Origin: Octopus vulgaris
Lineage: Eukaryota
Length of the DNA stretch: 64,000 bases
NCBI GenBank assembly: GCA_951406725.2
Contig: OX597826.1
Span: forward strand, 26,784,001 to 26,848,000
Reading direction: 5' to 3'
Part shown: one piece after another, positions 2,207-45,755 of the stretch
Layout of the letters: each line of letters begins with the position of its first letter
Position numbering within the stretch: the stretch's first letter is position 1
Position numbers and translations under genes: made by a program
Notes under the pieces: model-generated
Databases searched by the model: none
What the model was told of the DNA's origin: nothing
Seen by the model: only the letters and a program-made list of their open reading frames with translations

Positions 2207-2390
2207 GTATGTATATCTATACACACGACAGACTTCTTTCAGTTTCCGTCTACCAGATCCACTCACAAGGCTTTGGTCGGCCCGAGGCTATAGTAAAAGA
2301 CACTTGCCCAAGGTGCCACGCAGTGGGACTGAACCCGGGATCATGTGGTTGGTAAGCAAGCTACTTACCACACATTCACTCCTACGCCTA
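1958..2390 (-). mobile_element. tRNA-derived SINE family A, near full length, with internal (TA)n(TG)n
   Basis: Reverse complement of 22448-22915; tRNA-like head ggcgtaggagtg...ccgggttcagtccc; CORE-like ccttgggcaagt. Confidence 0.85.
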
Positions 2391-3485: not shown

Positions 3486-3568
<83 letters not shown>

Positions 3569-3731
3569 ACGGGCTTCTTTCAGTTCCCGTCTACCAAGTC
3601 CACTCACAAGGCTTTGGTTGTTCCGAGGCTATAATAGAAGACACTTGCCCAAAGTGCCACGCAGTAGGACTGAACCAGGAACCACGTGGTTGGTAAGCAA
3701 GCTACTTACCACAGAGTCACTCCTGTGCCTA
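3285..3731 (-). mobile_element. SINE family A copy
   Basis: Same head, body and tail as 1958-2390. Confidence 0.85.
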
Positions 3732-4139: not shown

Positions 4140-4323
4140 TAAGGTCCAGCAGTGATGGTAAATTAGTAGCTGTAAGATGAGCTTGCTTGTGTGCTAAGGG
4201 ATTCATTTCCCAGACATGGTTCTGGGTTTACTTTTACTGTGCAACACTTTGGGCAAGTGTCTTTGGCTATAGCAACGGGCCTTGTGAGTGAATTTAACAG
4301 ACGGAAACCTAAAGAAGCCCGTC

Positions 4324-4390
<67 letters not shown>

Positions 4391-22447: not shown

Positions 22448-22614
22448 TAGGCGCAGGAGTGGCTGTGTGCTAATTAGCTTGCTTACGAACTACATGGTTC
22501 CGGGTTCAGTCCCACTGCGTGGCACCTTGGGCAAGTGTCTTCTACTATAGCCTCGGACCGACCAAAGCCTTGTGAATGGATTTCGTAGGCGGAAACAGAA
22601 GTAAACCCATCGTA

Positions 22615-25636: not shown

Positions 25637-25768
25637 TAGGCGCATGCGTGACTGCGTGGTAAAAAGCTTGCTTCCCAACCACATAGTTCTAGGTTCAGTT
25701 CCACTGCTATACCCTCGAGCCAACCAAAACCTTGTGAGTGGATTTGGTAGACGGAAACTGAAAAAAGC

Positions 25769-25829
<61 letters not shown>

Positions 25830-26010: not shown

Positions 26011-26372
26011 ATGGACGTCAAAATAGAAAAAAAGAAAAGCCCAACATATTTCTTATACACACATGTGCATACATATTTATGTACAAATATATATACACTC
26101 CTTCCAGTGCTATCTGTCGCTGACAAATCACGGCCTTGTCGTCCTCGCGTCTTGCTTTGTTGGGTGGGTGGATGGGAGGTGCTCTTGCCAGTGCCATATA
26201 TATGAATGAATATGTCCATTCCTTACTTTCACCGAAGACTAACGATTAACAGTAACGATTAACGACACTTTCCAGAATTTAAATTGAGAAAGTCTCCCGT
26301 GTTGCACTGATGGATGTTTTGCATTTTATCATATTCTTTTAAACATACATACGTACACGCATACATCATACA

Positions 26373-26406
<34 letters not shown>

Positions 26407-26424
26407 CATACATACATACATACA

Positions 26425-26457
<33 letters not shown>

Positions 26458-26459
26458 TA

Positions 26460-27757
26460 TGGCTGTCCCCTCGTTATCGAGTATGGCCATTGCACGAAGC
26501 TTAACCGTTACTGGTGCTGTGATCGAATGTGACTTTTTAGCCCAGCTAAAGATCTACAATGTCTTGTACAAAATTGACAACTAAAACCTTTACTGGTAAT
26601 AGCCGGCTGTAGTTGTAACTGGGCTTCTTGTACCTTTGTATGTCGTTTAAGTCCTCCTGCCGAATTACACTCTCTTCCACATGCCCGACAGATATGATTA
26701 GTATGGTGTGCTACACCACCACCAGTGGCCAGGTTGTCACTCATCTGTCTCGTTTTATGACTACGAAGATGACTCATGAGTCCAGCTTTACTGAGGCACA
26801 GACATTGCATGTCAGAATCAAAGGAAGACCCTTCCCTTCTGGAAGTGTAACAGCGATGCCCTTCCTGACATCCCTCCTTACTTTCTCATGTGCAACTCGA
26901 GATTTCTCAAAAGTGGCTGTCCCCTCATGCACAATCCTTCTCCACCTGCTACGACCAATAGCTATGCCTTCCCATGTGTCAGGAGAGATGCAAGCATCTC
27001 TTAAGGAAGCCTTCAGTAAGTCCTTATACCTCTTTTTTGGTTTATGTGGAGGTCGTTCTCCTTTAGCTAACTCTCCATAAAAGAGTTGTTTTGGCATCCT
27101 TGAATCCTTCATTCTGACCTGATGACTACTCCATTTGAGCCTTTGCTTTAACACAAGAGCTTCTATACTTTCACACCGAGAGCCTTCCAATATTTCAAGA
27201 TCACTGATGCGGTCCTTCCACTTAATGCCATAGATCCGTCTGAGGCACATCTGATGGAAACGTTCCGGTTGTTTAAGGTGGTATCGATATGTGACCCACG
27301 TCTCGCAGGCATAGAGAAGAGAAGGGAGCACACATGCCTTGTACACCTTTATCTTTGTCTTTCTGCGTATGTCTCGCCGACTCCAGAGGCGCTTTTCTAG
27401 CCTTCCGAAAGCAACACTTTCTTTCCTAATTCTAAATGGAATTTCATCATCCACATTGCCATATCTATTAATAGTGCTTCCCAGGTAGACAAACTGATCA
27501 ACTACATCAAGTCGTTTACCATTCACATAGATATTTGGTACACTATACTGCTTACCAGGGGCAGGTTGATGCATGACAACAGTTTTCTTGAGATTGACTG
27601 TCAATCCTAAGGCAGTGCAAGCATCAGAGAATGCATTCAAAATGTGTTGCATATCAATCTCTGTGTGTGCTACTAGCTCACAATCATCTGCATACAAAAG
27701 GTCTCTTATGATAGAGGTAAATATCTTTGTTTTTGCAGCAAATCGCCTGATATTTGT
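26460..27757 (-). pseudogene. RTE LINE 3' segment: RT from just before YADD to C-terminus, three C2H2-like zinc fingers, short 3' UTR and (TATG)n tail
   Basis: ORF 26774-27769 contains LLYADDCEL, LGLTVNLKKT, FVYLGS, LLYACETW; frameshifted continuation 26508-26810 has CLSKAGLMSHLRSH, CRACGRECNSAGGLKRH and CQFCTRHCRSLAGLKSHIRSQH; 3' hairpin ctcgataacgag. Confidence 0.92.
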
Positions 27758-28321
27758 CAGCAAAGCCACAGGAAAAGGAAGTGTTGCATAGGGACCTCAA
27801 GGATGTAAAATCATGTGTGAGACAAAAGCTCTCTCAGATGAGGGATGCGTGGTGGAGTACCAAGGGTGATGAGATACATGCGGCATCAGATTCCAATAAC
27901 ACAAAGCTGTTGTATGGTCTCTTGCGAGAAATTTATGGACCGACGTCGTCCCTGATGACACCACTTCGAAGCTGGGATAGTAAAGAACTTCATGATTCAC
28001 AAGGAATTCTGCGAAGGTGGCAAGAACACTTTGATGAACTTTTGAATCAGCAGTCTGTAGTTAGTGAGGATGTTCTCAATCTCATCCCTGGATTGCCTGT
28101 GAAGGCAGCACTCGCGGAACAACCAAAGTTGGAAGAAGTTGCAATGGCTGTCTCAATGTTGAATAATGGGAAGTCTACGGGTATGGATGGCATACATGCG
28201 GAGTTGTTACAGCATGGTGGTAAGAAACTTCTGCAGAAACTTCACTCTTTGTTTGGTAAGATATGGACTAGTGAATCTGTACCTGAGGACTGGAGAGATG
28301 CAGTAATGGTGGTCCTGTATA
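27757..28321 (+). pseudogene. RTE LINE middle segment (EN-RT linker to RT N-terminus)
   Basis: RRWQEHFDELLN, NNGKSTGMDGIHAELL, VPEDWRDAVMVVLY; breaks off just before the expected K..G..NYR motif. Confidence 0.9.
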
Positions 28322-30150
28322 TCAGGTCACTTTCGGGTGCTACTGGTAACATGTAACCCAGTGCAACCTTATGTCAGGTCACTTTCGAGTGCTACTGGTA
28401 ACATGTAACCCAGTGCAACCTGTTGCATGGTCGGGTCGTCGGCGACTAAACCGGCAACCCCACCAAGCTTGCTTGGTTTATTGGACACCCTGCGGGATGA
28501 AAAACAAAACCCGTCAAAGGGCGGAGGATCTCTTGAGAGTCAACGGCCATCCAATAAATGAGTAATTTTTTTTTAAGGCTTAAGTCTGTATGATGCGCGG
28601 GAACACAGAAATAATCGGACTGAATACCCGATCGCGCGGTTAAACCATTGGGAGTGAAGGACTCATAGCCTTTGTTAGGGCATCCTTCTAGGAGAAGGTA
28701 ACTCAGGTAACTGGGATAACACCGACATAAAACCTGCGGCTCAGTGGTTACCGATAATGTTGACTTGTTCTTCTTTTCGGATTATGGCTGCTGTTGCTTA
28801 GTGAGTGGGATTGACTCAGTGCACAGCCTTTCCTCACTTAAAAAAATCTTTTTGCACAGGCATTGCACGATAACTACATTGGATTGATTAAATTGATTAA
28901 CTAATTCATGATTGTTGATAGTGCTGTGAGTCTCAAATGAATGGCTGGCTGTTGCCTTAAAAAGCAAAAAATCAATGATGTACCAAAACAGTATAAAAAT
29001 AAATGGCAGTAAGGACTCTGGAATCACATCAGCTGAAAGAGTCTGGCCCGGCAGGGTCTCCAGAGCATCAGAGTCTGAACCCGGCCGTCATCATGCTACT
29101 GTGACAGAACCGAAGAAAATAGTGAATATTGGCTGTTGGAATGTACGGATACTGCTTGACCGCAAGTCCTCCGAATGTCCTGAAAGAAGGACTGCGCTTG
29201 TTGCGAAGGAGCTTCAACGCTATGATCGTGACGTCGTTGCTTTATCTGAGACGAGATTACCTGGAGGTGGTCATCTTACAAAATCTTGTGGAAAATATAC
29301 ATTCTTTTGGAAAGGGAGGAATGAAGAGTTTAGAGGAGAAGCTGGAGTGGCATTTGCCGTTAAGACTACTCTTGTGGACAAGTTGGAAGAATTCCCAATC
29401 GGAATTAACGAGCGTCTTATGTCCATGAGAATTCCTTTGGCTAGAGAAAATTATATGACCTTGGCGAGTGTGTATGCTCCAACTATGTGCTATACTGATG
29501 ACGAAAAGATTTTCTTTCTACCATGCTTTGAAGGGCATTATAAGAAATATCCCTCGGGCAGACAAAGTCATCGTACTGGGTGACTTTAATGCTAGAGTTG
29601 GTAGGGATTTTAACACATGGACTGTGATTGGAAAGCATGGGGTGGGGAAGTGTAATAGTAATGGCATGCTTTTGCTGCAGATGTGTGAGGAGCTGAGTCT
29701 GTGTGTTACCAATACTATGTTTCAACAAAAGAATAAGCTTAAGACTACATGGATGCACCCTGCATCTAACGAATGGCATATTCTGGATTACATCCTAGTT
29801 AGGGTGCGTGACAGACAGGATGTGCAGTGTGTTCGTGTTCTTCGTGGAGCTGAGTGTGGGACTGACCACCGCCTAGTACGTGCAAAAGTGAAATTAGTCA
29901 CAAAACGTAAACTCCGAGCTGCAGAGATTACCCTGCCTAAAAGACTGAATGTTGATCGTCTTAGGTATAATAGTGTGAAGAGAACTTTACGAGAGGAAAT
30001 GAATGCTGCAGATATTGGGGTGGATTGGCCGACCCTTAAAAAGTCAGTTTATGATATAGGCAAGAAAGTTCTGGGATTGATACAAAGAAAGCATCAGGAT
30101 TGGTTCAAAGAAAATGATGAACATATAGATGATTTATTGGCGGATAAAAG
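28322..30150 (+). pseudogene. RTE LINE 5' segment: 5' UTR plus APE endonuclease, frameshifted near 29510
   Basis: IGCWNVR, ALSETR, GVAFAV, SVYAPT, LGDFNARVG, ILDYIL, TDHRLV, HQDWF; the 5' UTR has tagggca..ctaggagaaggtaactc, which I recall as RTE-typical; 52-nt tandem duplication at the start. Confidence 0.92.
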
Positions 30151-30281
30151 ACATACATATATACATACATACATATATACATACATACATTAATACATAC
30201 ATACATACATACACACATATGTCTAGACATACATACATACATACACACGTATGTCTAGACATACAACTATGTGTTTGAGAA

Positions 30282-30467
30282 TAGGCGCAGAAATGGCTCT
30301 GTGGTAAGTAGCTTCCTTACCAACCACATGGTTTCAGGTTCAGTCCCACTGAGTGGCACCTTAGCAAACTGTCTTCTACTACGGCTTCGAGCCGACCAAA
30401 GCCTTCTGAGTGGATTTGGTAGACGGAAATTCAAAGAAGCCCGTCGTACATATATATAATAAGTGTG

Positions 30468-42585: not shown

Positions 42586-45350
<2,765 letters not shown>

Positions 45351-45407
45351 TATCGTACACAACAGTCCTGATGTTTTAAAAGCCAGCCTCCCTCATGCGT
45401 CACTCAC

Positions 45408-45755
45408 CGTACCTCTTATTCTTTTCACATCAACGCCAGCATTACTTCTCCAGCATCTTCTCATCTCCTTCTTCTCATTTAATATTCCAGTCTCTCTCTT
45501 TCTTTCTCTCTCTCCCTCTCTCTCACTTTCTCTCAGCCCATTTTTTTGTCTTTCTTTTCCTTGCTCATCCTTCGCAACAGTCTGTCATCATTGACTTAAA
45601 TGCTGTTCCGTTATTGCAGTTATTCTTTGATGGTTCAATCTTAACGTTGCTGTTCTTGCGATGTTTCACAATGAAACGCCGACTGCAGTTTGCGCATCAG
45701 TTCTTCTGGCGGCTGCAGTGGCATAAGAAGTGATAAACGGTGCGATTTAAAAAGC
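45408..45755 (-). other. Candidate exon, probably UTR or non-coding
   Basis: Donor acg|GTGAGT at 45407; possible acceptors ttgtttgcatgcAG (about 45756) or cttcttatgccactgcAG (about 45713); 5' boundary uncertain. Confidence 0.25.

Follow-up and report, generated by a model that had tools for sequence, protein, structure and literature searches.

Between two (CATA)n tracts in the 64-kb window (the whole stretch of DNA analysed) lies a LINE retrotransposon whose parts stand out of order, on both strands, and with one part missing. Its structure, read from one genome assembly, is best explained as one dead copy that had its parts rearranged, and some of them lost, in the course of insertion. As a ruler we used P0001, a protein of 1185 aa from an ENA record that was the best full-length relative found, and compared it with the window by tblastn. 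The pieces, here named A, B and D in the order of the intact element, and the features around them are as follows.

26343..26457 (+): left (CATA)n tract (26343-26454 in TRF), target DNA that may also include some of the simple-repeat tail of the element (TRF and sequence)
26446..26457 (+): left copy of a candidate 12-bp target-site duplication (TSD), ACATACATATAT, abutting the end of the element
26458..27754 (-): segment D, with the C-terminal part of the reverse transcriptase (RT) including YADD, the thumb, C2H2 zinc fingers and the 3' end (P0001 residues 780-1185)
26458..26507 (-): 3'UTR of about 50 nt within D, ending ...GGGGACAGCCATA; the stop codon is at 26508-26510
27755..28321 (+): segment B, which carries the linker and the first part of the RT region (P0001 residues about 411-599), with a left edge uncertain by a few bases
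28318..28421 (+): head-to-tail duplication of 52 nt with 2 differences, straddling the junction of B and A (TRF and repeat comparison)
28322..30151 (+): segment A, 5'UTR, AP-type endonuclease and start of the linker (P0001 residues about 1-401)
30151..30162 (+): right copy of the candidate TSD, 12 bp, ACATACATATAT, abutting the end of the element
30151..30245 (+): right (CATA)n tract, sharing its strand with the left one (TRF and sequence)

The tblastn alignments place residues 6-202 of P0001 at 28987-29553 (+), 186-402 at 29504-30154 (+), 415-599 at 27769-28320 (+), 780-1103 at 27754-26783 (-), and 1101-1185 at 26801-26511 (-). On the forward strand, D (minus) is followed by B (plus) and then A (plus), with no overlap between pieces when measured against P0001; read in the sense of the element, this becomes flank, inverted A, inverted B, D, and tail. 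Residues 600-779 (about 540 nt, segment C) are absent from the whole 64 kb, where the best tblastn match has E = 0.084 and falls inside A, and no second copy of the family was found in the window by blastn or tblastn. A preliminary description of this DNA had already proposed that D, B and A stand in this order and orientation with the RT core missing, and the alignment of P0001 bears this out; the edge of D that it placed at 27757 is corrected to 27754, where homology stops. It had passed over the 52-nt tandem duplication, the candidate 12-bp TSD, the C2H2 fingers at the C-terminus, and two frameshifts. As it stands, the copy cannot encode a working RT.

Within segment A, the AP endonuclease was confirmed by Pfam (Exo_endo_phos), and one of the two frameshifts lies in a T run near 29510. 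The 5'UTR runs to 28974, with the first in-frame ATG at 28975, and the longest plus-strand frame wholly within it encodes 71 aa. Its length of 605-653 nt is similar to the roughly 600 nt of RTE-2_OV, an element of Octopus vulgaris, and fits a reading in which A may reach the RNA's 5' end. A search for a ribozyme at the element's 5' end gave one chance-level match in Rfam (25 bits against a cut-off of 54.5) and no match to hammerhead or twister core words or to an HDV-like descriptor, the last of these not validated on a positive control. In segment D, Pfam identified the C-terminal part of RVT_1 and, at its end, the C2H2 fingers; homology begins about 20 codons ahead of YADD with an Asn codon whose last base is 27754, without the Phe codon that relatives usually have before it, and the second frameshift lies near 26800 (tblastn).

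The element is built, and would work, like an RTE-clade LINE with C2H2 fingers; the clade label, which is putative, rests on anatomy. A single open reading frame carries both AP endonuclease and RT, with no ORF1 (Pfam Exo_endo_phos and RVT_1, and the colinear single-ORF P0001), Pfam gave no RNase H family match in D or in P0001, and the 3'UTR of about 50 nt is followed by a simple repeat with a tail unit of TAA or TATG. Absence of RNase H and a very short 3'UTR that terminates in a simple repeat are described as features of the RTE clade in PMC2887409. None of the relatives among the matches listed is named as RTE, and matches in the PDB were only to distant L1 and R2 proteins. Searches for relatives with B returned two matches among 829 candidates in the "longer" mode, with only P0001 useful, and none among 74 in the "near" mode. 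With D, the "near" mode gave 261 matches among 1134 candidates, the best of the 120 listed having about 50-56% identity over most of D and up to 69% over half of it, and identity in a search of representatives reached at most 55% among the 150 matches listed. A search of GTDB for DNA of the family gave two loci out of 91 candidate stretches, with 37-42% identity and no blastn match. Two LINE RT fragments (L001, 5001-5789, and L002, 4998-5683) are separated by 7 kb on a contig whose title names a Dehalococcoidia MAG; they are probably eukaryotic contamination of the genome bin.

RTE-2_OV, as presented in PMC9115989, resembles the element in having a single ORF with endonuclease, RT, and C2H2 finger, a similarly long 5'UTR, and a 3' microsatellite; it differs in the length of its ORF, 1109 aa against 1185 aa in the closest relative of the element here. 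Identity with RTE-2_OV was ruled out, since none of its six published primers matches the window—one is unmatched at up to 3 mismatches, and the other five have 6-7 mismatches at best. Three words from the window were likewise absent from supplements 1-4 and 8 of the same paper.

Elsewhere in the window, no host-gene domain was matched by Pfam in the 72 of 98 ORFs scanned. ARAGORN found no tRNA at 30285-30450, nor at 2225-2372 (-), 3567-3728 (-), 22451-22614, 25656-25776, and 4279-4326. Weak tblastn matches (E of 1e-4 to 4e-10) at 44350-45458 involve non-RT parts of two relatives and CCA/CAA-rich low-complexity sequence, and are probably compositional. Between 41000 and 45000, where long arrays of triplets lie (TAT, TAG, GAA, ATA, and CCA), GC skew flips abruptly from +0.7 to -0.66.

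We then asked whether A, B and D belong to one lineage and are of one age, using a comparison set of 12 near-full-length relatives; they were picked from the 32 proteins that reached 700 aa in a collection of 271. Identity to P0001 is similar throughout—81/132 (61%) and 135/213 (63%) for the two parts of A (A1 and A2), 107/187 (57%) for B, and 197/317 (62%) for D—and in unrooted trees each piece groups with P0001 (support 92 for A1, 100 for A2, 99 for B, and 98 for D), with terminal branches of 0.39-0.47. The comparison of divergence among the three pieces for which the preliminary description had called is consistent, at protein level, with a single insertion; it is blind to subfamilies, which the trees cannot separate because identity to even the nearest relative is only about 60%. 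The pieces contain no stop codon in 993 codons, an outcome with a probability of 0.08 at 2% divergence and 0.02 at 3%, so that divergence above about 3% is unlikely. GC3 is 0.38-0.44 in every piece, and mismatches at conserved sites (3/25, 3/46, 2/19, and 4/54) are within the range of intact relatives, so that they carry no power on age. Taken at the resolution of these protein-level tests, which are coarse, the pieces behave as one young copy.

The strongest argument for a single event is the geometry: the pieces do not overlap, B and A together have no 3' end of their own, and the start of B corresponds to a point by the end of A. These same facts weigh against separate events, in which a 5'-truncated D and an unrelated B-plus-A insertion came together, or against a source element that was already rearranged. 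Subfamilies beyond the resolution of the protein-level data would leave room for such a history, but B and A would have had no 3' end to prime from, and neither a repeat tail nor a TSD lies between D and B; we regard it as very improbable.

Both flanks of the element consist of (CATA)n on the same strand (TRF), as the preliminary description had noted, and plus-strand CATA tracts make up 0.8% of the window. The shared strand rules out that the right tract is the tail copied in inverted orientation. When the flanks are joined at the candidate TSD, they form a single tract that is in phase, as read from the sequence, and the 12-bp length falls both in the mode of 10-12 bp given for RTE elements (Ichiyanagi and Okada 2008, as quoted in PMC6007223) and in the ranges of 10-20 or 12-18 bp that accompany L1 5' inversions (PMC4245944 and PMC11702581). 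The candidate is nevertheless weak, because its word is common in the window (19 occurrences of ACATACATATAT on the plus strand and 17 on the minus strand, 36 in total) and lies inside a microsatellite; an alternative TSD would be a 25-bp match at 26394-26418, with some 40 nt of tail after it. The right tract itself contains, at 30163-30265, a 32-nt higher-order repeat with a TGTCTAGACA palindrome, in about 3 copies.

The flanks also bear on the possibility that the structure is an assembly or library chimera. It comes from a single assembly, and the frameshift in a homopolymer run is of a kind seen in long-read errors, but the window contains no N, the flanks are on the same strand with a candidate TSD, and the three junctions, two of them in unique sequence, match the pattern predicted by a known mechanism. 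A chimera therefore seems extremely improbable.

The junctions hold the most specific information on how the copy arose. B resumes at about residue 410-411, that is, 8-10 codons (about 25 nt) past Arg401, the last codon of A; the earlier statement that it resumes shortly after A holds, but the gap is larger than the few residues then given, and it falls where relatives vary in length. In a simulation, a start of B within 30 nt of the end of A occurred in about 1.5% of random placements, or about 0.9% if B was also required not to overlap D. At its other end, at 28321, B reads ...VVLY plus one base that fits a Lys-containing motif of relatives. The 52-nt duplication across this junction is either a feature of the family's UTR or a stutter specific to the event. 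The first three bases of the duplicated unit coincide with the last Tyr codon of B, an overlap in the sequence that is suggestive only, as a possible 3-nt microhomology with an adjacent mismatch. At 28375-28422, the duplicated unit is nearly coextensive with a stem-closed hairpin domain lying where the 5'UTR begins (z of -0.8 alone).

A colinear copy could also have been inserted normally and been rearranged later at the DNA level, with B and A each flipped in place and C deleted. The layout does equal two in-place inversions and a deletion, and the region is very rich in microsatellites. Such a history, however, would take some five breaks, including one at the 5' boundary of the element that spared the candidate TSD, in a copy that is young, and no inverted repeat of at least 12 nt links the junctions among the 25 longest of 26 pairs. 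We consider it quite improbable.

The reading that we judge probable is one target-primed insertion of an RTE-type LINE into (CATA)n, by twin priming, in which the second cDNA switched onto B. Starting from the order, orientations, gaps, single lineage, and youth of the pieces, which are established, we infer four steps. The first nick would prime at the 3' end of the RNA, and its cDNA would stop after 1.3 kb, giving D. The other target end would prime internally, near codon 401, and copy A towards the RNA's 5' end, so that A would lie inverted with its internal end against the flank. The second cDNA would then move some 0.6 kb downstream of where it had itself begun and copy B back, halting at its own priming site and leaving the gap of about 25 nt. 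Finally, the two cDNA ends would be joined, and C, never having been copied, would be lost. The layout fits twin priming with 5' switching—D in sense, A inverted so that its internal end meets the flank, and B oriented as A—and the model accounts at once for the breakpoint at the flank, the inner position of the 5'UTR end, the proximity of B to A, and the lack of overlap. Against it stand the gap of about 540 nt, far above the median internal deletion of 14.5 nt given for L1 twin priming in bioRxiv 10.1101/2024.08.27.596794, the near restriction of 5' inversions to L1 in human cells, the unexplained 52-nt duplication, and His402, which would give a 4-nt primer match and is found in 0 of the 12 relatives. 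Twin priming in one insertion, with a switch onto B as first proposed, is the best-supported account, and the protein-level tests did not refute it. Two parts of that proposal are putative, the reach of A to the true RNA 5' end and an R2-like jump from end to end; the novelty then implied was overstated, as this combination has already been described for L1.

The same junctions are predicted if twin priming took its ordinary course: the first cDNA would have run through D, C and B to the second primer and then broken, with C lost and B end-joined to the second cDNA by host repair, and with no switch by the RT. An end of B by the internal primer would then be the classical twin-priming collision (bioRxiv 10.1101/2024.08.27.596794), and extra cDNA pieces end-joined into L1 junctions have been reported (PMC11702581). 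This route requires two extra breaks and an oriented ligation, and leaves the 52-nt duplication at the B/A junction unexplained if it is specific to the event; we think it unlikely. A more tentative elaboration of the twin-priming-and-switch model, which we find doubtful, is that the RTE enzyme left the RNA at its true 5' end, copied the first 52 nt again, and then made an end-to-end jump to the broken 3' end of that same RNA fragment, so that the first 2.4 kb became circularly permuted. If this were true, the break in the RNA would also account for the stop of D and the missing C.

Architecturally, the copy corresponds to a rare outcome already known from L1 retrotransposition, found here in another clade. 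In bioRxiv 10.1101/2024.08.27.596794, "twin priming and 5' switching" is assigned to 20 L1 cases in a set with 1,836 5'-inverted insertions, and the extra piece is attributed to a switch by the internally primed cDNA. As in the element here, the 3' part is in sense, the 5' part is inverted at the flank, and an extra inverted piece lies at the inversion junction, although equating that paper's "upstream" with the present geometry is our interpretation. Those cases are human somatic L1 insertions, whereas the copy here belongs to an RTE-type element and comes from the genome assembly of an animal; the L1 class as described there also carries a 5' deletion, whereas A seems to keep the whole UTR and the gap measures 540 nt. 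A GREM mRNA retrocopy made by L1 (PMC11702581) likewise has three non-overlapping pieces, of which the outer two are inverted and the middle one comes from a secondary RT switch before joining. It consists of adjacent mRNA pieces and arose in cultured human cells, whereas here a large piece was skipped and the element copied its own RNA.

Template jumping by R2 (PMC8857657 and PMC2912911) resembles what the third step needs, a continuous cDNA across separate templates with little pairing; it was shown in vitro with the R2 enzyme, whereas the ends between which a jump started and landed here are putative. Chimeras of U6 with RTE-like elements are reported in PMC4476161, so template switching is known in the RTE clade. 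In human cells, according to PMC4245944, 5' inversions among more than 200 inserts were confined to L1 apart from one Nimb-2 insert, in a set in which RTE was not included. The literature for comparison also includes PMC2718515, PMC13282606, and PMC3510499. We found no report of twin priming in an RTE element in the literature searched, mainly open-access, and no description of the switching variant outside L1 in the open-access literature searched. The novelty is limited to the RTE-type element that hosts the event, a 5' end that appears complete, and the large size of the gap.

This is a single dead copy without function, and its value is as a fossil of mechanism, one that repeat annotation will split into three insertions. 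A confirmed case in an RTE element would suggest that twin priming with switching is general to LINE reverse transcriptases. If such copies prove common in the family, twin priming would be a regular route of RTE elements into microsatellites rather than a speciality of L1, and the copies would record template jumping in vivo and mark the RNA's 5' end.
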